Assembly: GCA_964600255.1 (NCBI GenBank) | Contig: CAZRIX010000001.1 | Location: forward strand, 43,948-107,947 | From: an uncultured Candidatus Saccharibacteria bacterium | Lineage (GTDB): Bacteria; Patescibacteriota; Minisyncoccia; Phycocordibacterales; PALSA-1337 | DNA length: 64,000 nt | Reading direction: 5' to 3' | Part shown: piece by piece, positions 12,824-50,617 of the stretch | Numbering within the stretch: position 1 is the stretch's first letter | Layout of the letters: each line of letters starts with the position of its first letter | Translations under genes and position numbers: made by a program | The notes under the pieces: model-generated | Database searches by the model: none | The model's input: only the letters and a program-made list of their open reading frames with translations | Told to the model about the DNA's origin: nothing

Positions 12824-13582
12824 TTGTTTTTTGTTGTATATTACTATCCGGCTGTTCTTCTCGTTTTTAACGTTAAGAAATCTCCAGCTACGCTAGAAAA
12901 TTCGGTGAAAGGAATAAGAGTGAGAAAACTGGTTCACTTTGGCCTCCACGGCCCATCATGCTCCGGAAAGGGCTACGTCACAGGTCACCTATGCGAACGC
13001 TATCACGGACACGTCTTCGTGATTGGTCTAGGTGACATGATTCGTGCTCGGCGCAGTGCCGATCCAGAATTCAGAGCCTATACTGACCAACAGACGCGCG
13101 ACGGTGTGATGATAGATGACGCGATTGTCACAGAAATGACTCGAGTCCGATTCGAGGAAGGCCTTCGTGCCGGATACGACACCTTCATCTGGGAAGGTTT
13201 CGGACGCAACTACACCCAAATGAAGCAGCAAATGGAGTGGTGGGGCAAAAATGATGGTCGTATCTTCAACCTCCTAGCAGGCCTAGACACAGTGGTCGAG
13301 AGACTTCGTAAGGCAATCAGTGAGGGCAGACGATCTGATCGAGAAGATAACGGTGCGATCACTGTACGTTTTGCGCTTCACGACAGTCAGATGAGTGAAG
13401 TTGCGCGGGCGGTAAGGAACGCTGACCGTTTCTTGACCCCGATCGATGCGAGCGTTGATTTGGGGTTGTTTGCTCGCAAAATTGCGTTCTACGCCAACGG
13501 AGTGCGTGGTTTTAGGGAGGCTTCAGCCCCCACAGAATCATACATGAACAGCCAGCGTACTGCGGATGCAGTTGCAGCATAG
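12824..13582 (+). CDS. P-loop nucleoside-monophosphate kinase, adenylate-kinase-like. High-GC foreign gene. True start is probably near 12905-12930.
   Basis: GLHGPSCSGKGY P-loop. GDMIRA and GFGRNYTQ resemble the adenylate kinase GDLLRA and GFPRT motifs. GC is ~53% in an AT-rich backbone. Confidence 0.45.
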   Translation: MFFVVYYYPAVLLVFNVKKSPATLENSVKGIRVRKLVHFGLHGPSCSGKGYVTGHLCERYHGHVFVIGLGDMIRARRSADPEFRAYTDQQTRDGVMIDDAIVTEMTRVRFEEGLRAGYDTFIWEGFGRNYTQMKQQMEWWGKNDGRIFNLLAGLDTVVERLRKAISEGRRSDREDNGAITVRFALHDSQMSEVARAVRNADRFLTPIDASVDLGLFARKIAFYANGVRGFREASAPTESYMNSQRTADAVAA

Positions 13583-13603
13583 TCCCGCCTCTTACAGGCT
13601 CAA

Positions 13604-15872: not shown

Positions 15873-15960
15873 ATATTTATGTATTGAATAATAGCAGAAA
15901 AAGGGGCCTTTTGACTAGTTTTTTATATAAAAAACATTCAATTTTGTCTAATCTTTACTA

Positions 15961-16082
15961 TTGACTTTTCATATAAAATGTGCTAATATATTAGGAGAAG
16001 TTAGAGAAAACTGAGTACTCTGCCGTGCTTTGCACGGAGTGGAGGAAAAAGTGATCTTTGACAATTTAACAGGAGATAGTGT
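15961..16082 (+). promoter_or_regulatory. Consensus-like sigma70 promoter (TTGACT-17-TAATAT) plus conserved structured leader, copy A
   Basis: TTGACT at 15961-15966, 17-nt spacer, TAATAT at 15984-15989. The leader has a CCGTGC/GCACGG hairpin and GGAGG tracts. Copy B at 17070 is near-identical. Confidence 0.6.
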
Positions 16083-16970
16083 ATGGACATTAGTTTTAAC
16101 AAGGAAACCAACGTTTTGAGATGGACCCCAGTTCTATTAACAGATCGATATGTAGTGAAGATGGAAGGTGGAACTGCTCCAGATGACTGGACTAATGAGT
16201 ACTCAGTCCCTGAAACAGTAACCGGCATTAAACTAGTTGAATCGGCGTACTGGGGCAACATCAAGGAAACTGGTGCGAAGATAACCATCACTGCGCTCGA
16301 TGATAGTAGGAGCACTCTGGATACTGTCGACATCAACATTACCATCCCGAAGCAGAAGTGGCACCAGGGAGCGGCCGTGAGGCTGTTCATGCTACTGGCG
16401 GTCCTACTCGGCGCTTGGGCGTCATACTCACAGTACAAATTGGGTAAGGCCAATGACGTTATGGCTGAGCGGGATGAAGCAAAAACACTTCTTGCTGCTC
16501 AGGTGACACTGACAGCAGACTGGAAGAAGGCACACGACAAAGCTACCAACCAGCCAGTTGTAACATTGTACGAAACCAATGTGGTAACGGTGCCTGTGTA
16601 CGAGAAGATCAAAGTCTACGACATCCCGCAAGGGATGCCGAAGGCTGGACCAGCGACGAATGATACGTTGGTCCATTACTTCTCGCCTACCAACCAGCAC
16701 ACGGTGACGAAGTTCATCACCGATGGAGATGGGACTATGTTCCTCACTCCAAACGACTGGCAGATCAACTGCCTGGTCTACGGTAACGTGGCCGATTTCG
16801 ATCGGCTCGTGAACATCGGGGGACTTACCAACCCCCACTGGATCCATTACGGACCAGGAACAAAACTTCCAGAGGCGACCAAGGTGGTCGCATATTGGAT
16901 TAGAAACCGAGTGCAGAACTCCCACCTCAAGGTGGAGTTCGTGCTCACACCCGTCGCCTCTACTCCATAG
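16083..16970 (+). CDS. Hypothetical membrane protein (single central TM) in the high-GC island
   Basis: 295-aa ORF with RBS AGGAGA. GC ~50%. Central hydrophobic helix AAVRLFMLLAVLLGAWASY. No recognisable motif. Confidence 0.5.
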   Translation: MDISFNKETNVLRWTPVLLTDRYVVKMEGGTAPDDWTNEYSVPETVTGIKLVESAYWGNIKETGAKITITALDDSRSTLDTVDINITIPKQKWHQGAAVRLFMLLAVLLGAWASYSQYKLGKANDVMAERDEAKTLLAAQVTLTADWKKAHDKATNQPVVTLYETNVVTVPVYEKIKVYDIPQGMPKAGPATNDTLVHYFSPTNQHTVTKFITDGDGTMFLTPNDWQINCLVYGNVADFDRLVNIGGLTNPHWIHYGPGTKLPEATKVVAYWIRNRVQNSHLKVEFVLTPVASTP

Positions 16971-16990
16971 CAAAGCGCGACCGGCAAAGG

Positions 16991-17025
16991 GAGCCTGGGA
17001 TTTTATTCCAGGCTCTTTTCTTTTG
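16991..17025 (+). terminator. Intrinsic terminator
   Basis: GAGCCTGG-N9-CCAGGCTC perfect 8-bp stem followed by TTTTCTTTT. Confidence 0.65.
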
Positions 17026-17069
17026 TGTGTTTACTAAATAATTTAAAGATTTTTAAAGCATAATTACCA

Positions 17070-17182
17070 TTGACTTTTCATTTAAAATGTGCTAATATAT
17101 TAGGAGAGTTAGAAGGCCAAGTACTCTGACACGCTGTAGCGTGGAGGGAGGAAAGGAAGAACTTTGACAACAAGGATAATTC
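17070..17182 (+). promoter_or_regulatory. Consensus-like sigma70 promoter plus conserved structured leader, copy B
   Basis: TTGACT at 17070-17075, 17-nt spacer, TAATAT at 17093-17098. The hairpin ACGC/GCGT sits where copy A has CCGTGC/GCACGG, which is a compensatory change. Confidence 0.6.
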
Positions 17183-18112
17183 GTGAAAAAACTATCATAC
17201 GAGTCGCAATTTTGGAGATTAGTCGTCTCCATCATGTCACTGCCCATAACGATGTACGTCATCTACAAGGTCGTATACACGGTTGTTGTATTCATGCGAT
17301 TCGATCCATCGGTGGCCGAGAAGTTAGCGAACTGGGTAGGCCTACCGGCCTCCTGGTATATCTACTTCAAGTTCCTACTCGAACGGTTCTGGATTGATGT
17401 AGCACTTGAAGACGTGGTCCTAGAAGATTCCTTCAGTTTCCGGAACAGGAAGGTCGGTGATCAAGCAGACCCATTGGCTTTGCCGAGTGGTCTGAGGTCA
17501 GTTGGTGGACCAGGGTTCAGAGCGAAGGGTTTCTTTGAGACCGTCAAGACGAGATTACCTGTAGTATCTAAAGAGAAGAATGGTGGCCTCGAAGTCGACG
17601 ACAAGCAAACGAACACCTTCAACGTCAGTTACTCCATGACATTTACTAGGGTCAGGGGTAAATTCTCTGTGATTGGTTCAACCTACAAAGAGGAAGAGGC
17701 AGTTAAAACCCTCGAAGCCATCGTTGAGGCGCGAATTGAGGAATTATTCGCAAACGAGCAGGATGGTAGGAATATCCGGGCTTCACTTGATAAACGTAAC
17801 GAGGATCTCTCTAAGGTCCTCGGCGGCGATCGAGATATCAGCACCGAAGAGATTCGTTGTGGGTTCTTCATAACAAAACTTCGAATCAAGACGGTTGATG
17901 AGGCTGCAGCAACAAAACAGCGTAACCAGACCCAAGCGCTGGCAACAGCTGTGAATTCTGCAGCAGATGCTCTATCAAAGGGTATCGGGGCTGGAGCAGA
18001 TCCAAACCTTATTATGGCCCTTGCTGCAAGTGCAGCTGGGGTTAAGGGTGACGGAGTTAAAGTGAGTATAGTCAAGGGTCTCGAGAAAGGCGGCACATAC
18101 AACGTAAGTTAA
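17183..18112 (+). CDS. Membrane protein with weak SPFH/band-7-like features (GTG start)
   Basis: N-terminal TM helices. Central region and Ala/Gln-rich C-terminal helix loosely resemble stomatin/HflKC organisation. Unknown function. Confidence 0.4.
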   Translation: MKKLSYESQFWRLVVSIMSLPITMYVIYKVVYTVVVFMRFDPSVAEKLANWVGLPASWYIYFKFLLERFWIDVALEDVVLEDSFSFRNRKVGDQADPLALPSGLRSVGGPGFRAKGFFETVKTRLPVVSKEKNGGLEVDDKQTNTFNVSYSMTFTRVRGKFSVIGSTYKEEEAVKTLEAIVEARIEELFANEQDGRNIRASLDKRNEDLSKVLGGDRDISTEEIRCGFFITKLRIKTVDEAAATKQRNQTQALATAVNSAADALSKGIGAGADPNLIMALAASAAGVKGDGVKVSIVKGLEKGGTYNVS

Positions 18113-18113
18113 C

Positions 18114-18554
18114 ATGAACACCACACTTCTCAAAAAACTGGCGTGGTATGGGCCAATCGCGGCGATACTAATCGCTACGATGTTCTACATCCGATCCTAC
18201 AACGGGTCAGAAAAGAAGGTACAGCACGTCCCTGTCACTGGCGGTGGTAAGGCTTCGGCAACCACCACAATCACGATCATCAAGGGGGCAACTCCTAGGA
18301 TGATCGATTACCCACATTTCTCCCGGTTCAGATCGGGAATTGTGGAAGATGACGTTGCGTACGTCATACACATCAATCTCGTCGGTCGGCCTGACCATGA
18401 GATTGAAAAAATATTCGTACCTGCCAGAAACGACAGACCGAGCAATTGGTCTGATCCGCTCGCAGGCAAGAATATTGCGAGGATCGGGTTTACGCTCGAT
18501 CCTTCCTCGGCCAAGGATATTGGCCACATCGAGTACGTAGTCGAGAGGCAGTAG
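18114..18554 (+). CDS. Hypothetical membrane-anchored protein, probably co-transcribed with 17183..18112
   Basis: ORF begins 2 nt after the upstream stop. N-terminal TM. High GC. Confidence 0.45.
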   Translation: MNTTLLKKLAWYGPIAAILIATMFYIRSYNGSEKKVQHVPVTGGGKASATTTITIIKGATPRMIDYPHFSRFRSGIVEDDVAYVIHINLVGRPDHEIEKIFVPARNDRPSNWSDPLAGKNIARIGFTLDPSSAKDIGHIEYVVERQ

Positions 18555-18580
18555 ATAATACCACCACTCGAAAACGGCAA

Positions 18581-18608
18581 AGGGGGACCCTATGGGACCC
18601 CCTTTTAC
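18581..18608. terminator. Bidirectional intrinsic terminator between the island and the pilin array
   Basis: GGGGGACCC-TAT-GGGACCCCC hairpin with an A-run upstream and a T-run downstream. Confidence 0.6.
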
Positions 18609-18636
18609 TTTGCATATTTTATTCTAAACAACTTCC

Positions 18637-18966
18637 CTACTGGAATGGATCAGTAACACCCACTGGTGCAAGTGTACTGACTATAACCCTAATTATCCCA
18701 TATGCCGATACCATGATGAACATTCCCGCCGCACTCCAGAATATACTTCTCTTGCCGTCTTCTCTTGCATCAGAATCCTCCTGACTCGCAATCATTTTGA
18801 ATATGCCGTACACAAATGTTACAAAAGACAGTAGGAACATTACACCAAGAATCGGTGTGATTATGTTCAAAGCAATACTATCTAGAAAACCACGTATAGT
18901 GGGGTTCTTCGATAGAACTTGTGACGCAGACTGTGCGTGAGCAATGTTTATCAAGCTAATCATCAA
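18637..18966 (-). CDS. VirB2/TrbC-like two-TM pilin-family protein, paralog 1
   Basis: Signal peptide ending AHAQS. Hydrophobic helix, short Asp/Glu/Arg-rich loop (QEDSDAREDGKRS), second hydrophobic helix. Confidence 0.5.
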   Translation of the reverse strand: MMISLINIAHAQSASQVLSKNPTIRGFLDSIALNIITPILGVMFLLSFVTFVYGIFKMIASQEDSDAREDGKRSIFWSAAGMFIMVSAYGIIRVIVSTLAPVGVTDPFQ

Positions 18967-18973
18967 ATTGGAT

Positions 18974-19345
18974 TTATGGAATCTGTGGTGGTGGTGGAAG
19001 CTGAATGTTGTTTACCTTGTCTGTTGGAAGATTGTTTTGTCCAAACTGGAATGAGTTTGTTAGAAGATATACAAGTCCCCAGATTGATAGGATTGCAAAT
19101 AGACCTATAACTCCATAAAGTATAGCCTGTCCCCCCTTCTTACGAGCTTCCTCATCATCACTACCTGCGATTAGGTATCTGACAACACTGATTATGATCC
19201 ATAGAACTGCAAATGAGATAGCTAGTCTAACGAGCAAGTTACCAATATTTGTTGCCTTCATTGCAACAGAGTTGATGTCATTTAGCTGTTGAGCAAATAC
19301 AAGCGTAGGTGAAAATGCGATAATGGCTGCGATTATTTTTTTCAT
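18974..19345 (-). CDS. VirB2/TrbC-like two-TM pilin-family protein, paralog 2
   Basis: Signal peptide ending VFAQQ. TM. AGSDDEEARKKGGQAILYGVIGLFAIL loop and TM. ~75% identical to paralog 3. Confidence 0.55.
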   Translation of the reverse strand: MKKIIAAIIAFSPTLVFAQQLNDINSVAMKATNIGNLLVRLAISFAVLWIIISVVRYLIAGSDDEEARKKGGQAILYGVIGLFAILSIWGLVYLLTNSFQFGQNNLPTDKVNNIQLPPPPQIP

Positions 19346-19423
19346 GATAATATATTATTTAATAACTACTAAATTATAACAGTTTAAAGGTTTAGCAACA
19401 AATGGGCTGTGGATACGAGAATG

Positions 19424-19795
19424 CTATATATTAGAATTAATCGTAGGGTCCTGTATTCTCAAATTGTTAAAATTTGGTCTTTGATCTTCAGAGAATCTAA
19501 ATGTATTTACTAGAAGATATACCATTCCCCAAATAGACAAAATCGCAAATAGACCAATAACACCATAAAGTATAGCATCACCACCCTTCTTGCGAGCATC
19601 CTCATCGTCACTACCTGCGATTAGGTATCTGACAACATTTACGATTATAAATACTACAGCCAGTGAAATTGCTAACTGGATTACAAGATTACCAATGTTT
19701 ACACTCTTCTGCGCCACATCATTAATATCTCGTAGCTGTTGTGCTGATGCAAATGCTGGAAATAGGATTGTTGTTAGAGTAAGTATTTTTTTCAT
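19424..19795 (-). CDS. VirB2/TrbC-like two-TM pilin-family protein, paralog 3
   Basis: Same architecture. Loop AGSDDEDARKKGGDAILYGVIGLFAIL. Confidence 0.55.
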   Translation of the reverse strand: MKKILTLTTILFPAFASAQQLRDINDVAQKSVNIGNLVIQLAISLAVVFIIVNVVRYLIAGSDDEDARKKGGDAILYGVIGLFAILSIWGMVYLLVNTFRFSEDQRPNFNNLRIQDPTINSNI

Positions 19796-19802
19796 ATTTT
19801 AT

Positions 19803-20411
19803 TTAATTACCTGATGGGTCCGAACCTGTAGCACCGGATTCTGATGGTTGTGTACCACCAGTACTAGGTGACCCACTCGGAGAGTTTGATGTACTACCAG
19901 ATCCGCTACCATTTGAATTCCCTGTTGCTGGCGATCCGCTTGGTCCATTGAAAACATTACCTGAACCGCTTGGAGGGTTTGTTGTTCCACTAGTGCCACT
20001 TGAAGGGTTTGTTGTAGCTCCACTCACACTTGGAACTGTATTACCACCAGATGTACTGCCACCACCGCCATTGAAATTCACAAATGATGGTACGGTTCCT
20101 GGTTGTCTACTATCTAACTGTAGTGTATTAGTAAATATTGCGACTATTCCCCAGAACGAAAGTATTACAAAGAATCCAATTACACTGAATAATACGTACT
20201 TACCTGCTTCAGTTCTGTCCTTTTCAGTAAAGAAGTAGATGAATACATTCCAAACAAACACCACAACGGCAAGACCTATGATCAGTGATAAGGCTATGTT
20301 TAGATATTCAGCTACTAGACGCGCTAGATCCTTCAGTGACTTGCCCTGCGCAAAAGTAAAACCGGGTAAAAGTAGTGTTAATAGTAATAATTTGCTTTGT
20401 AATTTATTCAT
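19803..20411 (-). CDS. VirB2/TrbC-like two-TM pilin-family protein with Gly/Ser/Thr/Pro-rich C-terminal tail, paralog 4
   Basis: Signal peptide. TM. TEKDRTEAGKYVLFSVIGFFVIL loop and TM. Then a ~100-aa low-complexity GSTPN tail. Confidence 0.5.
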   Translation of the reverse strand: MNKLQSKLLLLTLLLPGFTFAQGKSLKDLARLVAEYLNIALSLIIGLAVVVFVWNVFIYFFTEKDRTEAGKYVLFSVIGFFVILSFWGIVAIFTNTLQLDSRQPGTVPSFVNFNGGGGSTSGGNTVPSVSGATTNPSSGTSGTTNPPSGSGNVFNGPSGSPATGNSNGSGSGSTSNSPSGSPSTGGTQPSESGATGSDPSGN

Positions 20412-20420
20412 AAATATTAA

Positions 20421-20846
20421 TTATTTTTTAAATTGCTGTTCAGTAACCAAACCCGCACTGATGAGTGTGGTCTTAACAACTTCTACCACAACCTTTGAAC
20501 TGATGAGTAAGGCAGTACCTATAACGGCATACATAAACCATTCTTTGGCTTCAGATATAGCACTATCATTACCCTGTGCCATTACAAATTTGAATCCTAT
20601 GTATATAAACATAAGCACGGCCACGATAGATCCAAGATATATCGCCAGATCAACAAGAGTCAGCAGAAGATCACTTATACTATTTACTTTGATTGGATTG
20701 TCGAGTTTGACCACTACTGGTGTCTTGTTGGCAGTTGTATCTAAATTACCTTTATTTGCGGTAGTATCAATAGCAGCATTTGTAATAGGAAAACTATACA
20801 CAAATCCGGAAATTAGTAGAATCGCAATAACTAGTATTTTTTTCAT
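20421..20846 (-). CDS. VirB2/TrbC-like two-TM pilin-family protein, paralog 5
   Basis: Signal peptide. TM. AQGNDSAISEAKEWFMYAVIGTALL loop and TM. Confidence 0.5.
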   Translation of the reverse strand: MKKILVIAILLISGFVYSFPITNAAIDTTANKGNLDTTANKTPVVVKLDNPIKVNSISDLLLTLVDLAIYLGSIVAVLMFIYIGFKFVMAQGNDSAISEAKEWFMYAVIGTALLISSKVVVEVVKTTLISAGLVTEQQFKK

Positions 20847-42102: not shown

Positions 42103-45100
42103 CTATTTTCCAAATAGTAATTTCAATATCTTAAGGAAATATGTCTTTGTACCTACAACAATAGCTGATGTCACCTTTGAGATCGTGCCTTTATTACCTT
42201 TTACTGCAGTTTTGTTAGCACCAGCATCATTCTTTGTACTTGAGACAACCCCTATTAATCCTGTAGCCTTCTTAGATACTACACTCGTCCCTGACTCACT
42301 AGCTTTTACTTCCTTAGAATTTTTTGAACTTTCTAGTGGCTTTAATGTTGGCGCCTTTGTGACTGGGTCCGGCACAAGACTTGCAAATGGTGAGGTTAAC
42401 TGCCTTACAAAATTAATTGCTTTATGTGGATTTACAGCGGTCACAATAGCAGCTACTGGAGTTACAATCTCAGGTTCTGGATTGTATATAGTTATAACTA
42501 CACTTGTTGTTGCGAAGTTATTTGATGAATCGCGTGCTACAGCATATACAGTATAGCTACCATCAGCATAACTAGTACTATTGAGAGAAGTAAAATATGG
42601 ACTAGCCACATCCTCCACTCCCAAATATACTCCATCAATCATAAATCGAACTCCAGCTAGCGATACATTATCTACTGCAGATGCAACTATACTTACCGCA
42701 TTTCCAGATACCACTTCAGCGTTAGCTGGAGATACGATGGAAATAACAGGGGCAGTTATGTCTGGCACAATATTTGAAACCGTAATACTTACCGATGTTG
42801 TCGCATAGTTATTTGATGAATCCCGGGCAACCGCAGTGACAACATAATTACCATTTGCAACTGAAGTACTGTCAAAAGATATTGTGTATGGACTACTTGT
42901 ATCTTCTGATCCAAGATTTACATTATCGAGTTTAAACTGTACCCCTGCGACAGCTATGTTATCTGTTGCTGTAGCGGCAATGCTGTAAGAGCTTCCTGAG
43001 ACCGTAGCGAGGTCTGTAGGTGATGTAATAGATACAACTGGATCTGTAGTATCGGGTATTACAACTGCCAAAGCAGAAGCCATATTAGAATTACTTGTTC
43101 CACTAGCATCAACTAGTCTTATTCTGTAATAATAATCAATTCCATCGGAAATATATGGATCAGTAAATGTTGTTGTACCCTCTGGCACCAAATCTGAAAC
43201 TATGTTTTGAGTAAATAGGAAATTCGTAGCTCTATCTACATACAACATATGTGATGTTGTAGCATTGTTTGTCCAAGTCAGATCAACTTGATTTGCTCCT
43301 CTAGTAGCATCCAAACTTGTTGCAGCTGGAGTCAAACTTACTGATGGGAATACATCATCTAGATTCCAACTACTGTTCCATGAAATAGACATCGTATTGT
43401 TTGTTGGGAATGTCAAAGGTAACCAAACATGTCTACTGTTATACAATGATCCAGCGAGATTATTACTATAATCAAATCTATCTCCGATATAAATATATGC
43501 ATCACCACGTCCAGGTATATGCTCTATATCCGTTGTCTGGGAACGGTAAGCAATCATTCTATCTTCCTCAACACTAACCTGGAATGGATTTACAAGTGGT
43601 GACCAATTGCCCATAACACTCGTTGAGGTTGAATATTTATTCTCGTTTGGAGCCCATCCTGTTAGTCCAGATGTAAGTAGGAAGTACACACCATTTCGAA
43701 GTATCATCTGAGGACCCTCACGACCAATCAATACATTTGGTCTAACATATGTTCCAGAAGTGGTTAGATAATCATCTGATAGTTTTGAAATAACGAAATG
43801 CGTATTCGGACCGTCTGAGTATAGTAGATATCCTGATCCATCAGTATCCTTAAATAGGTTCATGTCGTTTAGATAGAATCCATCTGGGTTGTAAGATGAT
43901 GAAGCAATAGTGAATGCCCCGTATGGTGTGTCGTTGTAAGCAACCACTGCTGTAGATTTTCCGGATGCGATAACTCGGTGACCCCATAGTACGTATTTTC
44001 CAGTCGTGGCGTTATATAGCACGTGTGGTCTTTCTATCATATAACTTCTACCGAGATAAATAACAGGACCTTCATCTTTCCAATTTATCAAATCACTTGA
44101 TGAGTAACATGATATACCTACTGCTTCGATTTCTGGATCGTTTGCATTAAAAATCTGTCCGTACCAATAGTACTTACCGTTAAAGAATTGTATTTCTCCA
44201 TCATGTGACTCAATCAAATGGTTATCAGTATCTAACCAATCCTGTCCTGGCTTAAAATCGATATCGAACCAATATCTAGATTGAGGCGAGACTTCAGAGA
44301 CGAACATGCCATCACTTATAGCTATAGATTGAACTGTGGATGATGCACTCAGTACAAACGGTGCAGTGTATAGTACCGTTGTACCTTGTGGGACTCCGTC
44401 TACTACACTAGGAATACTACCGTCAGTTGTATAGTAAATAGATGCGTTGGTTGTGATACTAGAAAGTCTTACTCTAATTGGTTGTGCATACTTTCCTCCA
44501 TTTGGCGAAGCTGTAGGGTGAACAGGGGTATATGGAGTGGTTGTGCCAGGATTTCCAATCAATCTAAATTCGGCTAGGTTACCGTAGTTTCCATCTGGCA
44601 TAACTAGTCTGTAAAATCTGTATGCACTACCGCCGGCGTCGATAGCAATCTCACTCATCTGTCGCTGAGCATAATACGGAGGATATGGTTGTATTGTGTG
44701 TATAGTTGTCCAAGGTCCAGTACTAGAACTGACATTTGCTCCTTGCAGATATGCACCGTAAACTTGAACTGTGTATCCTGGTCTTGGTGCAATCTTCATT
44801 CGCGTTACAACAGCTGGTGCCTTTAGATCAAGGCCAACTAGAGAACCGTTTGCACTTTGAGAATCCCACCATGTAGAAGTATTGCCGTCATATACCTTTG
44901 AGTAAACATTTCCACTGTTATTGTAACTTCCTGGAGTTCCAAACTGGTATGCAGGTGAGATACTAAACTGTATTTCTCCAGTTGAAGTCGCTACCGGACA
45001 TGTTGCGGTGGTCAATGTCCTGTTTGGTCCATATGAAGTACCAGATAGGTTTATTGTATATGCTCTGAAGTTATAGACGGTAGCACATGATAGACCACTT

Positions 45101-48100
45101 ACTGTTAATGAGTATGGACCTACTGGATACAATCCAGTTTCAGTAGTTGTAGCTCCATAAGCGGAGTTTAGACCATACTGAAAACCTCTGGCTGTAGAAC
45201 TTGCTGCTCCGTCGTTTGTAATATTACCATTTAGTATTGCAGTGAAGCTTGTCGTTGAACTAGCTGCGGATGTAGTGATTGTTGCAGGCATAGAGTTATT
45301 CACGATCACTCCAATTGATGTAGACGTACTTACATTCCCTGTTGCATCCGCAGCAACAACTGAAATTGTATGATATCCATCTGCTACTGAAGTTGAATTC
45401 CAACTGATTGAATATGGTGATGTAGTTCCAGACGCACCTATACTAGTATTGGTATCAATTTTAAACTGTACACTTCCTATTCTCACGTTATCAGAAGTTG
45501 ATGCTGTAAGAGTTACGCTCGATCCTGTTAATGTTGAGCTGGCTGTTGGGACTACAATTGCTGTAGTCGGAGGAATTGTGTCAGCCAAAACTGTTATGGT
45601 TGTAGATGCGCCAGAATCTGGAGCCGTGATCCTCAATGTACCAGTACTACTACCAGCGGATACGGTGATGTTGGCACTGGTAGAGCTTGATACTACTTGT
45701 GACGTTATTGCTGCACCTGTACCACCACTTATTCCAAATGTAGGCGAACCGGGCGTACCAGAAGTCCAGCTGGTTGCATTTCCAGTCAGTGTTATCACAT
45801 TATTTATTGAGTTCTGATATATAGTCGGAGTATTGGCAGAAACAGTAATCTGGGTGTTTATTAGATTGACCAGAACGTCAGTTGATGTACCTACGTTGCC
45901 TGAAGAGTCGGTAACAATTACTCGTATATTATGAGGACCATCAGCAATACTTGCTGAATTCCATACTATTGAATACGGCGATGTTGTTCCAACCGCGCCG
46001 ATGTTTGTATTATCTACCTGAAACTGGACTGAACTTACACTAGTATCATCACTTGAAGTTGCCGTTAGAGTAACATTACCCAAAAGGTCTGCACCGTTTA
46101 CTGGAGACGTAACTGTTCCGGTTGGTGGAGTAACATCGGCTGATAGCAGGAAATTCGCGATAGCTGTTGTAGAGTTTGAAGTACCTGCAGCAGTCACAGT
46201 TCTGATTCTGTAGTAATATCTAGTATCGTTCACAATGTCAGTATCTACAAAATTTGAAATGGTAGTTGTTGCTCGTATTGAAATAAAGTTTTCAGTAAAA
46301 ATATTGTCAGTTGCCCTATCGATGTACAACTCATAGGAGTTCGTCTCATTATTAGTCCAAGACAGATTCACAGTCAGAGCATTCTTGGTTGCTGTGAGAC
46401 CGGTTGCGGCTTGTGTTGGTATAGAGGTTGTAAAAGCCTCGTCCAAAGTCCAGCCTGGATTCCAAGAGATCGACATGGTGTTGTCGGTTGGAAATGTAAT
46501 AGGTAAAAATAAATATGTACTATTGTATAGCGAGCCACTAGCCGTTGCTGAATTATCAAACCTATCTCCCAAATACATATACCCTTCGGTCCTGCCTTGG
46601 ATGGTTAATATGCCAGATGTATGAGATCTGTAAGCGATCGTATTATCTTCAGTTGCACTTGATTGAAAAGGATTAACTAGTGCAGAAAATGTACCCAGAG
46701 GACTGGTTGATGTTGAATATTTATTTGTTGTAGCAGTCCAACTATTTTGTCCACTATTTAACAAAAAGTAAACTCCATTTCTCTTTACCATTGCTGGCGC
46801 ACTTCTATTTGCATTCGCAGCTGAAATATTGGAAACACCAGACATACCTTCGTATGTACTATCTAGCTTGGAAATAATCATTTTAGAATTATCACTAGAT
46901 GTGTAAATTATGTATGCCGTACCATCTGTATCTTTAAATAGGTTGAGATCGTTCAATCCTAGGGCATCAGGATTAAGAGATGTGGTAACAACCCTAAACG
47001 GCCCGTATGGCGTACTTGATGTTGCGACTATTGCTCTAGAGTTTGTTACGTTTCTTGCCCACATAACATACCTACTTGTAGTAGCGTTATATATAACGTG
47101 TGGTCTTTCTAGTATATATGATGTATTTACATTAAAAACCAACCCCTGACTAGTCCAATTTACTAGGTCGGATGATGTATATAAGTTAACACCAAGTTTT
47201 TCCAACTCAGGTGAAATATTGTTCATTGACTCACCGTACCAGTAATATTTTCCATTGAAATAACTTATACCACCAGTATGTGCGTCTATGATATTGCCGT
47301 TATTGTCATGCCACGTGATTCCAGATCGGATTGCGGGATTGATGAAAAAATACGCTGGATTTGAAACCTCTGAGACATATGTATTTGCACTTACAGCAAT
47401 ACTTTTGATAGTCGTTGTTGCTGTTGTAGTTGCCATGAATGGACCTGTGTACAGACGAGTAGTACCTTGTGGTGAACCTCCACTAAAAGTTGGTGTCGTA
47501 CCATCGTTTGTATAATAAATAACTGCGTCCGTGGTTGAACTAGTAATAGTTACTTGAACTGGTTGTGCAAACTTTCCACCCATAGGACTAATCTTTGGGA
47601 CAACTGGTACGTATGGAGTCGTACTTGAAGCAATACCAATTAGTCTCATTTCTCCTAGAGATCCGTAGGCACCGTTTGGCATGACTAGGCGGTAATATCT
47701 GTAGAACAATCCACCAGTATTTATTGGTATTTCAGAAAATTGTTTCTGAGGATAGAACGGAGGATAACTAGGTATTGTATAAATCGTTGTCCAAGGTCCT
47801 GTAGAAGAACTCACGGTTGCACCTTGGAAAACAGCGCCATGTAGTCTAACCGTGTATCCTGTGCGTGGTGCTACCCACAGTTTTGTAACTTGCGCATTTA
47901 CAGTTAGATCCAATCCTACGTTTGAACCATTGGCAAAAGACTGATTGGCATCCCACCAACTAGTCAAATCTCCATCGAATACTTTGGCAATCGTGTTTCC
48001 GTTATTGAAATAACTTCCAGCTGTTCCTATTTGATATTGTGGAGCAATACTAAACTGAACTTCTCCTGTTGCTGCATATATGATTATAGGGTAAACAAAG

Positions 48101-48183
48101 GCGGAGATGAGCAAAAAGATTACTATGAAAAAGTGATCTTTAATCAACTTTTTTACTGCATAGTAAAATGTGCTCTTTTCCAT
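42103..48183 (-). CDS. Giant (2026 aa) secreted or surface protein with two tandem discoidin-like plus GH43-like beta-propeller modules, then FN3/Ig-like repeats
   Basis: N-terminal signal anchor. Two copies of an F5/8-type-C-like domain (DGDLTSWWDA / DGNTSTWWDS). Two clan GH-F propeller units (NGKYYWYG, SSDL.NW, ERPHV.YNATT..YV.W). Lys-rich C-terminal tail. Confidence 0.6.
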   Translation of the reverse strand: MEKSTFYYAVKKLIKDHFFIVIFLLISAFVYPIIIYAATGEVQFSIAPQYQIGTAGSYFNNGNTIAKVFDGDLTSWWDANQSFANGSNVGLDLTVNAQVTKLWVAPRTGYTVRLHGAVFQGATVSSSTGPWTTIYTIPSYPPFYPQKQFSEIPINTGGLFYRYYRLVMPNGAYGSLGEMRLIGIASSTTPYVPVVPKISPMGGKFAQPVQVTITSSTTDAVIYYTNDGTTPTFSGGSPQGTTRLYTGPFMATTTATTTIKSIAVSANTYVSEVSNPAYFFINPAIRSGITWHDNNGNIIDAHTGGISYFNGKYYWYGESMNNISPELEKLGVNLYTSSDLVNWTSQGLVFNVNTSYILERPHVIYNATTSRYVMWARNVTNSRAIVATSSTPYGPFRVVTTSLNPDALGLNDLNLFKDTDGTAYIIYTSSDNSKMIISKLDSTYEGMSGVSNISAANANRSAPAMVKRNGVYFLLNSGQNSWTATTNKYSTSTSPLGTFSALVNPFQSSATEDNTIAYRSHTSGILTIQGRTEGYMYLGDRFDNSATASGSLYNSTYLFLPITFPTDNTMSISWNPGWTLDEAFTTSIPTQAATGLTATKNALTVNLSWTNNETNSYELYIDRATDNIFTENFISIRATTTISNFVDTDIVNDTRYYYRIRTVTAAGTSNSTTAIANFLLSADVTPPTGTVTSPVNGADLLGNVTLTATSSDDTSVSSVQFQVDNTNIGAVGTTSPYSIVWNSASIADGPHNIRVIVTDSSGNVGTSTDVLVNLINTQITVSANTPTIYQNSINNVITLTGNATSWTSGTPGSPTFGISGGTGAAITSQVVSSSTSANITVSAGSSTGTLRITAPDSGASTTITVLADTIPPTTAIVVPTASSTLTGSSVTLTASTSDNVRIGSVQFKIDTNTSIGASGTTSPYSISWNSTSVADGYHTISVVAADATGNVSTSTSIGVIVNNSMPATITTSAASSTTSFTAILNGNITNDGAASSTARGFQYGLNSAYGATTTETGLYPVGPYSLTVSGLSCATVYNFRAYTINLSGTSYGPNRTLTTATCPVATSTGEIQFSISPAYQFGTPGSYNNSGNVYSKVYDGNTSTWWDSQSANGSLVGLDLKAPAVVTRMKIAPRPGYTVQVYGAYLQGANVSSSTGPWTTIHTIQPYPPYYAQRQMSEIAIDAGGSAYRFYRLVMPDGNYGNLAEFRLIGNPGTTTPYTPVHPTASPNGGKYAQPIRVRLSSITTNASIYYTTDGSIPSVVDGVPQGTTVLYTAPFVLSASSTVQSIAISDGMFVSEVSPQSRYWFDIDFKPGQDWLDTDNHLIESHDGEIQFFNGKYYWYGQIFNANDPEIEAVGISCYSSSDLINWKDEGPVIYLGRSYMIERPHVLYNATTGKYVLWGHRVIASGKSTAVVAYNDTPYGAFTIASSSYNPDGFYLNDMNLFKDTDGSGYLLYSDGPNTHFVISKLSDDYLTTSGTYVRPNVLIGREGPQMILRNGVYFLLTSGLTGWAPNENKYSTSTSVMGNWSPLVNPFQVSVEEDRMIAYRSQTTDIEHIPGRGDAYIYIGDRFDYSNNLAGSLYNSRHVWLPLTFPTNNTMSISWNSSWNLDDVFPSVSLTPAATSLDATRGANQVDLTWTNNATTSHMLYVDRATNFLFTQNIVSDLVPEGTTTFTDPYISDGIDYYYRIRLVDASGTSNSNMASALAVVIPDTTDPVVSITSPTDLATVSGSSYSIAATATDNIAVAGVQFKLDNVNLGSEDTSSPYTISFDSTSVANGNYVVTAVARDSSNNYATTSVSITVSNIVPDITAPVISIVSPANAEVVSGNAVSIVASAVDNVSLAGVRFMIDGVYLGVEDVASPYFTSLNSTSYADGSYTVYAVARDSSNNFATTSVVITIYNPEPEIVTPVAAIVTAVNPHKAINFVRQLTSPFASLVPDPVTKAPTLKPLESSKNSKEVKASESGTSVVSKKATGLIGVVSSTKNDAGANKTAVKGNKGTISKVTSAIVVGTKTYFLKILKLLFGK

Positions 48184-48285: not shown

Positions 48286-49305
48286 TTATTTGTAACCGAA
48301 AATCCACTTTACAAATGACCAAATCTTTCCGAAGAATGATGTATTTGCTAGTGCGGCTGTCTGATTGTTACCGTTTGTACCTACTTCAGGAGAAAGTTGA
48401 ATTGTACCTGTAGCGTTTGTGCCGTCCTCTGCTGAGATGATTCCATTATCAATTGAGTTCTTGTATGCCTCTATTGTCGCCAACTGTGCAGCTGACAATG
48501 TTAGGTTTGTTCTACAATATATTTCATTTACCTTCTTCTGAGTTGTGTAGAATACTTCTCCTGTTGGAGTTGTAACTCCCCAAGGTGCCATAGTATCATT
48601 TACATACTTTGCCTGGAATGCCTTTACAGCATCTAGAGTCTTCTGATCAAACTGTCCGTTTATATCTACGTCTAGCTTCTCAGTATTCTTTAGGAATGAC
48701 TGTAGCTTTGTAACCTCAGCAGAATTATTGTTACCACCGAACTTTAGGAAAGTTGTTAGATAAGAACAATTTGCTACTGGAACAATAGTTGTAAAGTTAT
48801 TCAATGGTGCTGGACCTGATCCACCTGATGAACCACCAGAAACCTGGTTTCCGTTTGAAGAACTTCCACCATCTGTATTTGTATCTACTGGGGCTGGACC
48901 TGATGTATTCCCGTTATCTACTGTAGCTGGAGCTGGAGCATCAGCTGTTGTACCGTTTGATACTGTAGCTGGTGCTGAAGTGTTTCCATTATTTACTGTA
49001 GCTGGGGCACTTGTATTACCGTTATTTACAGTTGCTGGAGCTGCTGCATCTGCTGTAGTACCGTTTGATACTGCAACTGGTGCTGAAGTATTTCCATTAT
49101 CCTGTGTTGCAGGAGCACTTGTATTACCATTATCAGCTACTGATAGCTGTGTAGCAGTTGTGTGGTTTTCCACAGTTGCTGGAGCTGCAGTCGCTGTATT
49201 TCCATTATCAGCTACGTTAATGGCAAACGCTGGTGTTATAAACACAGCAAATGTCAGAACCGTAATTGACAGTAAACTTAGGCTTATTTTGATGTTTTTT
49301 GTCAT
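48286..49305 (-). CDS. Secreted protein with Asn/Gly/Thr/Ala tandem repeats and a C-terminal peptidoglycan-binding (PG_binding_1-like) domain
   Basis: Signal peptide. ~10 copies of the NGNTSAPATV-type repeat. C-terminal ...GGNNNSAEVTKLQSFLK...GQFDQKTLDAVKAFQ pattern. DNA-level tandem repeat at ~48880-49200. Confidence 0.55.
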   Translation of the reverse strand: MTKNIKISLSLLSITVLTFAVFITPAFAINVADNGNTATAAPATVENHTTATQLSVADNGNTSAPATQDNGNTSAPVAVSNGTTADAAAPATVNNGNTSAPATVNNGNTSAPATVSNGTTADAPAPATVDNGNTSGPAPVDTNTDGGSSSNGNQVSGGSSGGSGPAPLNNFTTIVPVANCSYLTTFLKFGGNNNSAEVTKLQSFLKNTEKLDVDINGQFDQKTLDAVKAFQAKYVNDTMAPWGVTTPTGEVFYTTQKKVNEIYCRTNLTLSAAQLATIEAYKNSIDNGIISAEDGTNATGTIQLSPEVGTNGNNQTAALANTSFFGKIWSFVKWIFGYK

Positions 49306-49384
49306 ATTTTTAATTATTATAATTCAACTTTTAACCTCGTTACCCTATCATACTAGAGTTAAAATGTCAATGGGTCAGACAAGA

Positions 49385-49414
49385 GAAAAGACCTACTCCG
49401 AAGAATAGGTCCTT
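49385..49414 (-). terminator. Intrinsic terminator of the high-GC secreted-protein gene
   Basis: GACCTA-N10-TAGGTC stem followed on the minus strand by TTTTCTCTT. Confidence 0.5.
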
Positions 49415-49446
49415 TTGGCGCTGATCGCCTCGAACTGAGTCGAGGG

Positions 49447-50418
49447 TCAGGGCATGAGCCGGAAGAATTGGGCGTCGGCGATTCCACTGACGGCAATCGT
49501 CTGACCCGCCACAATGTTGGTACCGGAAGTCCAGGGTCCGGTAAGTGTTGGGGCCACCTGCACCACATAGGTTCCGGCGTTGCCGTTGGTCTCGGCCCCC
49601 AGGTGCACAACACCATCCATGTTGTGGATGAAGAGGCGCGGGGTGGGAGGGATGAGAGACAACGTAAGCACCTTGGATGATGCTCCGGCAGTAGCCGTAA
49701 ACGTGATGGCAAAGTCGCCCACCACGTATGACATGACATTCTGGACCTCATTCTGATTCGAGACCTGGTAGGATTTGAAACCAACCACCACAACGAGCTC
49801 AGCAACCATCTGGGAAGAACTTCCCGTAGTCACCGTGCCACCATCTGCCCTCCAACCAGGCGACAGATCCGTATAGGAGTTGGACAGAAACGTGACGTCT
49901 TGTCCGAGGCTGTTGTTTCCTCCATCCTGACTCCGCAAAGCTGCGGAGACCATGGACAGACTGACATCGTTTGCGCCAGTCTTGCTCTTGGCTCGGACAA
50001 GGACCCACACAGTCTTACCATTCGCACCTGCGAACGAACCGGAAGGATTGAATCCAGCCCAATATGTCACTCCCGAGGGAGTGGTCATGATGCTGTCCCA
50101 CCTAATATGGTTAATCAGGCGGGGATCCGTCAGGTTGGTCGGAGATCCCATCGGCAATGTGCCAGTGGCTCGAACCACCGAAATGGCCTTCGCGACCAAT
50201 CCAGCGAAGGCGGGATTGAACCTCGGTGACCCTTCGAAGGGCACCAGGGTGATGTCGACCTGGGTGGTGGTATCCGCCGCAGGAGCGGCACCGCGAATTG
50301 CGATGCCTTCTGCAGTAGTATCACCATTGTCGACCACCACCGGCGGGGTCGATGCAGCGCTGACTCCGAAGACCATCGCGAAAGCGACGGCCAACAGGGA
50401 CATGATTTTCTTGTACAT
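49447..50418 (-). CDS. Hypothetical secreted protein encoded in a high-GC (~55%) island
   Basis: Signal peptide MYKKIMSLLAVAFAMVFGVSAAS. Gly/Thr/Ser-rich beta-type composition. No recognisable catalytic motif. Confidence 0.5.
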   Translation of the reverse strand: MYKKIMSLLAVAFAMVFGVSAASTPPVVVDNGDTTAEGIAIRGAAPAADTTTQVDITLVPFEGSPRFNPAFAGLVAKAISVVRATGTLPMGSPTNLTDPRLINHIRWDSIMTTPSGVTYWAGFNPSGSFAGANGKTVWVLVRAKSKTGANDVSLSMVSAALRSQDGGNNSLGQDVTFLSNSYTDLSPGWRADGGTVTTGSSSQMVAELVVVVGFKSYQVSNQNEVQNVMSYVVGDFAITFTATAGASSKVLTLSLIPPTPRLFIHNMDGVVHLGAETNGNAGTYVVQVAPTLTGPWTSGTNIVAGQTIAVSGIADAQFFRLMP

Positions 50419-50617
50419 AGGTTATCCTTAATCAGCTCAAATCATCAGGAAACGACTATAGACATCTGTTGTAAAACCGTTACAACATTTGTTTTTAAGT
50501 CTCTGACCGACAGGCCAATTCATCCTTAATTCAAAGAGCTAGTTGCAAGCAACCTATCATAGTTTGATATAATTGTCAATATGCTTCCCTACCTAATATT
50601 GATGCTATAATATTTGC

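Follow-up and report, generated by a model that had tools for sequence, protein, structure and literature searches.

A duplicated promoter and structured leader upstream of two adjacent, non-homologous genes in a Candidatus Saccharibacteria genome

The locus described here raises the question of why two neighboring genes with unrelated products should be preceded by much the same non-coding sequence. The genes, denoted ORF1 and ORF2, are located in a stretch of 64,000 nucleotides (the window) from an uncultured Candidatus Saccharibacteria bacterium (contig CAZRIX010000001.1, positions 43,948 to 107,947). An earlier note on this DNA had described the sequences in front of the two genes as paralogous promoter-leader elements, and pattern counts and alignment confirmed both of them at these positions:

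15961-16082, plus strand: copy A of the element, promoter and leader, upstream of ORF1
17070-17182, plus strand: copy B of the element, promoter and leader, upstream of ORF2-ORF3

The copies are each ~110 nt in length and share 81% mean column identity across the 161 columns of a pairwise alignment. Three blocks have exactly two matches apiece in the window: the promoter 29-mer TTGACTTTTCAT[A/T]TAAAATGTGCTAATAT, which begins at 15961 and 17070; the 23-nt block AAATGTGCTAATATATTAGGAGA, which spans the -10 box and the first bases of the leader; and the 24-nt block GGAGGAAA-N4-GA-N-CTTTGACAA. The chance expectation for these blocks, determined with dinucleotide shuffles, is 0.00-0.04 matches. Pattern searches detected no third copy in the window. 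A scan of the window with covariance model R1 produced a single additional match, at 48079 with an E value of 5.7, which was judged to be due to chance; its source is a run of 15 nt at 48120-48134 (GAAAAAGTGATCTTT) that is identical to part of the copy A leader and is accompanied by neither hairpin nor promoter. Descent from a duplicated gene that carried its upstream region along was ruled out, as ORF1 and ORF2 have no similarity. Because the two proteins are not homologous, it is the non-coding element itself that was duplicated and kept.

Diversity-generating retroelements (DGRs) are plentiful in genomes of the candidate phyla radiation (CPR), and the template and variable repeats of a DGR were considered on this ground. 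They were ruled out by inspection: the repeats are positioned upstream of genes and not in a 3' coding region, the differences between the copies are not adenine-specific, and there is no reverse transcriptase among the Pfam-annotated neighboring genes. No phage match was recovered for 15873-18640 and no PHROG match for ORF1-3. The 3' motif of the leader had one match in a viral contig, which was in unrelated sequence without promoter, hairpin or any other leader feature.

The element begins with a promoter, the parts of which were located with a consensus scan:

15961-15989, plus strand: copy A promoter, -35 box TTGACT at 15961-15966, 17-nt spacer, TG at 15981-15982, -10 box TAATAT at 15984-15989
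17070-17098, plus strand: copy B promoter, -35 box TTGACT at 17070-17075, 17-nt spacer, TG at 17090-17091, -10 box TAATAT at 17093-17098

Both promoters are near-consensus examples of the sigma-70/sigma-A type with an extended -10 region (TTGACT-17-TGcTAATAT) in which the TG is one base in front of the -10 box, and the promoter is kept in 8 orthologous contigs. Transcription would begin at ~15996 in copy A and ~17105 in copy B, the start sites predicted ~7 nt after the -10 box. The near-identical 17-nt spacer had been singled out previously. The similarity is genuine, but its specialness was overstated: the degenerate promoter-spacer pattern TTGACTTTTNNTNTAAAATNTGNTARTAT matched 20 unrelated stretches in a scan of a species-representative genome collection, including Lachnospiraceae, Ruminococcus, Eubacterium, Saccharibacteria, Parcubacteria and others. 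None of these 20 stretches carried the leader, and there was no similarity downstream of the -10 box. Thus, the spacer is largely what a generic promoter of the extended -10 type would show, rather than a special operator. The sigma-A promoters of this class (TGn or '-16 TRTG') in Firmicutes and CPR have the same TTGACT, 17-nt A/T-rich spacer ending in TGTGC, and TAATAT; nothing distinctive separates the promoter half of the element from them, and it is ordinary. Further comparisons were made with contigs of close relatives (L002-L008) and with distant loci from a profile search for remote ORF2 homologues (L031-L034). A palindrome over the -10 box, CTAATATATTAG, was rejected as an operator since it is not kept in L002, L003, L004, L007 or L008.

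The leader that follows the promoter folds on the plus strand as one long irregular hairpin comprising a closing helix P1 (GUUAGA/UUUGAC), a small helix P1a, helix P2 (CUCU/GGAG) and an apical stem-loop P3. Its parts include a purine tract that resembles a Shine-Dalgarno (SD) sequence:

15996-16082, plus strand: copy A leader, ~87 nt from the predicted transcription start site to the ORF1 start codon
16000-16007, plus strand: 5' strand of P1 in copy A, GUUAGAGA, predicted by RNAfold to pair with 16055-16062
16018-16021, plus strand: 5' strand of P2 in copy A, CUCU, pairing with GGAG at 16041-16044
16023-16037, plus strand: P3 hairpin of copy A, CCGUGC-UUU-GCACGG
16041-16048, plus strand: SD-like purine tract GGAGGAAA of copy A, the first four bases of which are the 3' strand of P2; invariant in 14 of 14 close copies
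16055-16064, plus strand: 3' strand of P1 in copy A, UCUUUGAC, then a conserved AA; UUG ACA, a possible mini-ORF start, at 16058
17105-17182, plus strand: copy B leader, ~78 nt
17108-17113, plus strand: GUUAGA of copy B
17124-17127, plus strand: CUCU of copy B
17130-17143, plus strand: P3 of copy B, CACGC-UGUA-GCGUG
17147-17150, plus strand: GGAG of copy B
17147-17154, plus strand: GGAGGAAA of copy B
17162-17170, plus strand: CUUUGACAA of copy B

The hairpins differ between copies in the pair-preserving manner that the earlier note had reported, although in that report one G of the copy A hairpin was counted twice and the copy B stem, which has 5 bp, was given as 4. RNAfold returned the same architecture (P1 GUUAGAGA/UCUUUGAC, P1a, P2 and P3) for every A copy. 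The minimum free energy (MFE) of 15996-16066 in copy A is -25.4 kcal/mol (z -5.08), a value that none of 200 shuffles equaled, compared to -13.4 kcal/mol (z -2.29) for the minus strand. The corresponding values for copy B are -16.0 kcal/mol (z -1.49) on the plus strand and -9.3 kcal/mol (z -0.55) on the minus strand. The long-hairpin plan was predicted independently for the distant leaders L031 (MFE -22.2 kcal/mol, z -2.55) and L032 (-23.5 kcal/mol, z -2.09), and weakly for L033 (-17.2 kcal/mol, z -0.5). The closing helix of copy B has two possible registers, AGAGUU/AACUUU or GUUAGA/UUUGAC.

Pairing in the apical part of the hairpin has been preserved through sequence change. RNAalifold applied to the raw MAFFT alignment recovered P2 alone, since the arms of P3 are thrown out of register by loops that differ in length (3 or 4 nt). 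The helices were re-registered by hand, helix by helix, before pairs were counted in 8-9 distinct rows; as the alignments are small and hand-built, the covariation statistics that follow are indicative and not definitive. Among the close copies (9 distinct), 90% of cells are paired and 8 cells are compensated, a number reached by none of 500 shuffles. Double-sided changes affect three of the six pairs of P3 in these copies (C-G/U-A; G-C/A-U/G-U; U-A/C-G). When the distant copies were added, P2 and the four apical pairs of P3 showed 97% paired cells with double-sided changes in five of eight pairs. None of 500 shuffles of this larger set matched the observed percentage of paired cells, the compensated pairs or cells, or the covariation score, and the values dropped sharply when the partners were slid. 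P2 reads CUCC/GGA, CUCU/AGAG or UCCU/AGGA in the distant copies. The P3 loops vary both in sequence and in length (TTT, TTG, TGA, GCG, TGTA, GATT, GTGT, AUGU, AUUG and UUG), and the G-U pairs in P1, P2 and P3 fit a plus-strand RNA only. Thus, P3 covaries, as does P2 once distant copies are included, folding is strand-specific, and the repeat is conserved; pairing of P1 is predicted. The proposal that the leader contains a selected RNA structure is supported by stems that remain paired in orthologues despite free loops and by the plus-strand folding, and rather than being confined to the two copies with no further covariation, the element recurs in at least 8 related and 3 distant contigs that add to it.

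The leader also has been retained well beyond the background. Each of the five relatives with a contig long enough to include ORF1 and ORF2 has both copies, and a single copy is found on each of three shorter contigs. Four-fold degenerate sites of valS, the gene on the far side of copy A, were used as the neutral yardstick. Identity of the copy A leader is 79-88% in relatives for which the valS four-fold sites give 48-90%, and individual comparisons with the window are as follows:

L003: valS four-fold sites 48%, leader A 86%, leader B 92%
L004: four-fold sites of ORF1-3 and a pilin gene 31-45% (valS is cut off on this contig), leader A 79%, leader B 73%
L033: ORF2 protein 27% identical, leader A not applicable, leader B 69%

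The ORF2 leader therefore is recognizable in three distant relatives in which identity of the ORF2 protein falls to as little as 27%. The region upstream of the ORF2 homologue in L031, L032 and L033/L034 contains a promoter of the type described above, a run of pyrimidines, a short hairpin (CACAC-UUG-GUGUG, CACGC-AUGU-GCGUG and GUGC-AUUG-GCAC in this set), a run of purines and [U/A]UGACAAC. Because the ORF1-side gene in the distant genomes has a different, shorter leader, the ORF2 copy is apparently the older, with the ORF1 copy apparently having arisen by duplication in the subclade to which the window belongs. In L004, the two leader copies (1455-1580 and 2512-2618) share GUAUAAGAA after the -10 box and the P3 loop GUGU, neither of which was seen in other genomes, which suggests gene conversion between copies within that genome. 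A metagenome scan with the leader pattern returned only a contig that was already known, from a collection that evidently lacks L004 and L006; the scan therefore says little about true abundance.

The leader matches no described RNA family in the databases searched. At gathering score, Rfam 15 (4227 families) identified only RNase P and four tRNAs in the whole window. When the threshold was relaxed to E values up to 10 for 15880-17260, there was no credible match and none to a riboswitch or thermometer, including ROSE and fourU. The only low-score matches that reach the promoter or leader of copy B, ncr1015 (minus strand), SSRC38 and tsr24, score 14-23 bits against gathering scores of 50-80. 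All three align over the full length of the model and extend across the ORF1 terminator as well; no match is restricted to a leader, and copy A is not touched by any.

The CTTTGACAA that trails the hairpin had been suggested as a second -35 box. This suggestion fails, since no -10 partner is located 15-19 nt downstream in 14 copies, the best hexamers having two to four of six matches and being unconserved, and CTTTGACAA thus is not a second promoter. Instead, the TTGACA is probably the 3' strand of P1, with a predicted pairing to the conserved GUUAGA near the 5' end. TTGAC nevertheless is found in every copy both at -35 and again 94-98 bp downstream. The same position may be the start of a translated mini-ORF: a start codon followed by ACA is present in 17 of 17 copies, as UUG in 16 and as AUG in L032 where UUUGAC has become CAUGAC. 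The four distant copies all contain [U/A]UGACA, and three of them (the ORF2-type copies of L031, L032 and L033) contain UGACAAC. Purine-rich stretches precede this start codon by 2-12 nt in all copies. The mini-ORF extends for 3 to 77 codons, falls in all three frames relative to the main gene, and has no conserved stop position. A conserved leader peptide from the GUG at 16051 was excluded by inspection because it is absent from B copies. Gene calls in two relatives begin the ORF2 homologue at a TTG within the leader, in L002 (3335-4282, 315 aa) and in L004 (2595-3551, 318 aa); the aligned ORF2 start is 6-8 codons downstream of these called starts. The leader therefore is a caution for gene callers. 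ORF2 calls are too short in L003 (286 aa) and L006 (294 aa).

The function of the leader has to be considered against the genes that it serves and the translation signals of the genome:

13677-15872, minus strand: valS; copy A lies between valS and ORF1
16083-16970, plus strand: ORF1, 295 aa, with an FN3-like N-terminal domain, a long transmembrane helix and a conserved C-terminal domain
16987-17029, plus strand: intrinsic terminator of ORF1, a 15-pair stem (16987-17019) followed by a T-run; the same hairpin is in L002, L003 and L004
17183-18112, plus strand: ORF2, 309 aa, a membrane protein, possibly SPFH-like, downstream of copy B
18114-18554, plus strand: ORF3, 146 aa, with an N-terminal transmembrane segment, downstream of copy B
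18637-20846, minus strand: array of five T4SS_pilin (PF18895) genes in tandem, then an SBP_bac gene; synteny is retained in every relative, the distant L033 among them

The predicted terminator separates two transcription units, ORF1 and ORF2-ORF3, and ORF2 and ORF3 would both be transcribed from copy B. A GGAG/AGGA-like SD motif was found upstream of only ~6 of the 39 long ORFs of the window, and a TATAAT-like box, often with TG, ends 6-13 nt before the ATG in 13 of 37 ORFs. Judged from these signals, the genome evidently produces mainly leaderless mRNAs or short mRNAs that lack SD sequences. It is because the genome is SD-poor and mostly leaderless that a purine-rich, structured leader of 80-90 nt is exceptional here.

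The observations indicate that the element very probably is a real, selected promoter coupled to a structured, cis-acting leader RNA. As an explanation of the whole, a duplicated promoter-leader with a cis-acting post-transcriptional role is preferred, with a probability of roughly 0.55. The element would have been duplicated so that two adjacent non-homologous units, ORF1 and ORF2-ORF3, share one promoter-leader, and the sharing suggests that the units are expressed and controlled together. The leader presumably acts in cis after transcription. Its structured 5' end, in which the stem begins ~5 nt from the predicted 5' end, together with the purine-rich SD-like tract would protect the 5' end of the mRNA, and the SD-like leader would set translation initiation by supplying determinants that are dispensed with elsewhere in the genome. 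P3 would require pairing only and not a particular sequence. A constitutive role in stabilization or in translation initiation, rather than that of a responsive switch, is advanced only tentatively.

Stabilizers of this kind are established in Gram-positive bacteria. In STAB-SD, an SD-like stretch of the 5' untranslated region (UTR) does not start translation but instead blocks RNase J1 (PMC4113751). Other structured 5' leaders include those of aprE and hbs in B. subtilis and the long structured 5' UTRs of S-layer mRNAs (partly from PMC5737220). Like the STAB-SD of B. thuringiensis cry3A, the element joins a strong promoter to a long leader, places an SD-like GGAGG at a considerable distance upstream of the true start, and has a stem ~5 nt from the predicted 5' end and downstream genes that resemble those for abundant envelope proteins. 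The GGAGG is invariant in 14 of 14 close copies and is represented by AGGA or GGAGG in the distant copies; the 3' end of 16S rRNA lies outside the window. In copy B, GGAGG has no start codon at the usual spacing of 5-9 nt, the nearest candidate being the UUG of the possible mini-ORF 12 nt downstream, whereas in copy A a GUG follows GGAGG at a distance of 5 nt. The host genome, being largely SD-less and leaderless, also sets the element apart, and the leader has no sequence similarity to any described stabilizer.

Several findings weigh against the preferred explanation. Whereas a STAB-SD is free, the SD-like GGAG here is engaged in P2, and an explanation based on 30S binding is weakened since the organism hardly uses SD pairing. 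The folding of copy B surpasses shuffles only modestly (z -1.4 to -1.5), that of L033 is weak also, and the hand-assembled alignments used to count pairs lean towards structure. P1 has no compensatory changes: both strands simply are conserved, and relatives show one-sided G-U/A-U changes only. Moreover, P1 is shortened in B copies, is not the MFE choice for copy B, and is missing or shifted in copy B of L004 where the 5' strand is deleted. Finally, the internal-loop nucleotides (AGUA, GGAGGAAA and GA[U/A]CUUUGACAA) are invariant among close relatives, which suggests sequence-specific recognition and not a generic protective hairpin.

These invariant unpaired nucleotides hint at a specific partner and make a responsive switch the main rival, albeit one that is rather unlikely. 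The leader would toggle between two folds and thereby co-regulate both operons: the long hairpin, in which P1 (GUUAGAGA/UCUUUGAC) is formed and the main start region is free, and a second fold in which UCUUU(G), a pyrimidine sequence, is paired to the SD-like, purine-rich element that immediately precedes the main start codon. The choice would be made by a trans factor such as a CsrA-like GGA-binding protein, by a small ligand, or by temperature. Conservation of the unpaired nucleotides is as expected of a recognition site, each leader contains 3-4 GGA motifs, and the presence of such a leader in a leaderless, SD-poor genome is itself exceptional. Furthermore, RNAfold predicted a CUUUG-ACAA-CAAGG pairing that covers the SD-like AAGGA of ORF2 in copy B, and inspection indicates that UCUUU can pair with GGAGA or AAGGA in A copies. 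However, the CUUUG/CAAGG pairing was found in close B copies only, and a purine-rich element is lacking in front of the main AUG in L031, L032 and L033, which means that the toggle is not conserved. The P3 loop, the usual point of contact for a protein or ligand, is free to vary, and no candidate regulator gene was identified. With regard to riboswitches, neither a terminator nor another classical expression platform follows the hairpin, SD sequestration is not conserved, and Rfam gives no match. The leader resembles SD-sequestering thermometers and riboregulators such as ROSE and fourU in possessing a short G-U-containing helix in which a pyrimidine run (CUCU, UCUUU) meets SD-like purines, and in the stacking of this helix on a stable hairpin in the 5' UTR. 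It differs from them in that the conserved helix sequesters the upstream SD-like tract instead of the main start region, in the absence of a ROSE or fourU signature, and in that the distant copies lack an SD at the main gene. As the main start regions (16071-16085 and 17172-17185) are outside the conserved P1-P3 hairpin, which thus excludes the start codon and SD of the main genes, a classical thermometer is argued against. A more elaborate scheme, in which an undescribed CPR-specific switch responsive to protein or ligand couples the hypervariable, recombining surface-protein cassette of ORF1 to the conserved membrane operon ORF2-ORF3 beside the pilins while the copies also act as homology arms for exchange of ORF1 alleles, is decidedly unlikely.

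Translation of the mini-ORF, gated by burial of its [U/A]UG ACA A.. start in P1, could in principle control the gene that follows, by coupling, by the loading of ribosomes or by protection of the mRNA. The unfailing retention of its start and second codons, the purine-rich stretches in front of it, the lack of an SD for the main ORF in L031-L033, and the leader TTG starts chosen by gene callers in L002 and L004 all are compatible with translation. Nevertheless, this explanation is improbable: length, frame and stop vary, pairing in P1 equally well explains conservation of UUUGAC, and SD sequences rarely are used in the genome. Even less probable is a role at the level of DNA, with the conserved blocks being transcription factor sites, an operator or a second promoter and the RNA fold incidental. 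Although TTGAC recurs ~95 bp on in every copy, inverted repeats can be operators, and the promoter spacer is highly conserved, the downstream TTGACA has no -10 partner, the -10 palindrome is not conserved, and the spacer is of a generic promoter type. In addition, the complementary and G-U changes in the stems preserve pairing in RNA of one strand, whereas they would destroy the half-site of a protein, and the plus strand folds much better than the minus strand. The notion that the repeats have no function of their own, but are products of recent duplication or gene conversion or are recombination anchors that flank a hypervariable ORF1 cassette, is the most doubtful of all. Among near-identical strains, ORF1 has been exchanged or is a mosaic, and breakpoints fall within and beside the repeats; the private features common to the L004 copies suggest gene conversion. 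Against this, conservation of the leader across genomes far exceeds the neutral level, L031, L032 and L033 retain a single copy upstream of the ORF2 homologue and have a different leader at the ORF1-side gene, and the compensatory substitutions imply selection on pairing.

A duplicated promoter-leader that acts in cis remains the preferred account, and it places the leader near the motifs in Rfam that were discovered by comparative genomics. In common with those, it has a covarying hairpin between conserved flanks, located in the 5' UTRs of one particular gene family, and a narrow distribution known only from metagenomes, yet it matches none of the 4227 families. The leader appears to be a new, narrowly distributed cis-acting leader RNA, that is, an undescribed family of a known general kind.

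ORF1, which is flanked by the two leaders as a cassette, is a hot spot of recombination. In comparisons with L005, L006 and L003, it proved to be hypervariable, and mosaic between strains that otherwise are near-identical. In L006, valS is 99% identical at the amino acid level and the flanks are 95-100% identical in nucleotides, whereas ORF1 has 64% amino acid identity (46-75% nucleotide identity at 16100-16700). Identity with L005 is 100% to ~16600 and 61-69% thereafter. Breakpoints are inside ORF1 and in or near the flanking conserved leaders.

The products of the locus have few relatives. Among 5.8 billion proteins, homologues of ORF1 form 8 clusters and those of ORF2 form 4. Neither Pfam at curated thresholds nor sequence relatives in the PDB yielded a match for ORF1, ORF2 or ORF3. 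One remote relative of ORF2 has a sub-threshold match to Band_7/SPFH, and the AlphaFold model of ORF2 (pLDDT 36) is unusable. The order valS, ORF1, ORF2, ORF3, pilins is kept in the contigs of relatives, and the ORF2-ORF3 pair is kept in L002-L006 and L031-L034. The nearest named relatives of the valyl-tRNA synthetase encoded by valS are at most 74% identical and are annotated as Candidatus Paceibacterota or Patescibacteria, which identifies the host as a CPR bacterium. The valS-proximal part of the spacer between valS and ORF1, at 15873-15925 (ATATATTTATGTAKTGAATAATAGCAGAAAAAGG...), also is conserved in relatives and holds a promoter-like site on the minus strand (TAGTCA-18-TATTAT with TG); the stretch from there to copy A is variable.

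ORF1-3 (16083-18554) constitute one of three islands with 46-51% GC in a genome of 36-39% GC, the others being at 12900-13600 and 49000-50500. The latter two contain, respectively, an adenylate-kinase-like gene and the gene for a 323-aa protein of unknown function. The islands may be of foreign origin or may reflect unusual codon usage. The GC-rich gene at 49447-50418 (minus strand) also has a long leader, of ~130 nt (50419-50585), which follows TTGACA-17-TAGGTT and includes a hairpin, UGUUGUAA-CGGU-UUUACAACA, and AAGGAUAA before the ATG. This leader is unrelated in sequence to copies A and B, and the protein is unrelated to ORF1 and ORF2. Elsewhere in the window, a giant protein of 2026 aa (42103-48183, minus strand) with GH43, Big_7, F5/8 type C and Fn3-associated domains is unusual for a small CPR genome.

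CPR bacteria, or Patescibacteria, are uncultured organisms with tiny genomes and few recognizable regulators, and to our knowledge very little is known about their gene regulation. A leader that is much better conserved than the proteins that it precedes, in a genome where most mRNAs appear to lack leaders and SD sequences, singles out two operons as being under special control and offers a concrete RNA element that is open to compensatory-mutation experiments. If it is only a stabilizing hairpin, the element still would be useful as a strong promoter-leader cassette. Were it instead a responsive switch, it would be among the very few regulatory RNAs known from Paceibacteria. As the pilin array adjoins the locus and the FN3 membrane protein ORF1 is swapped between strains, the element may bear on the tuning of the cell surface in these episymbiont-like bacteria.

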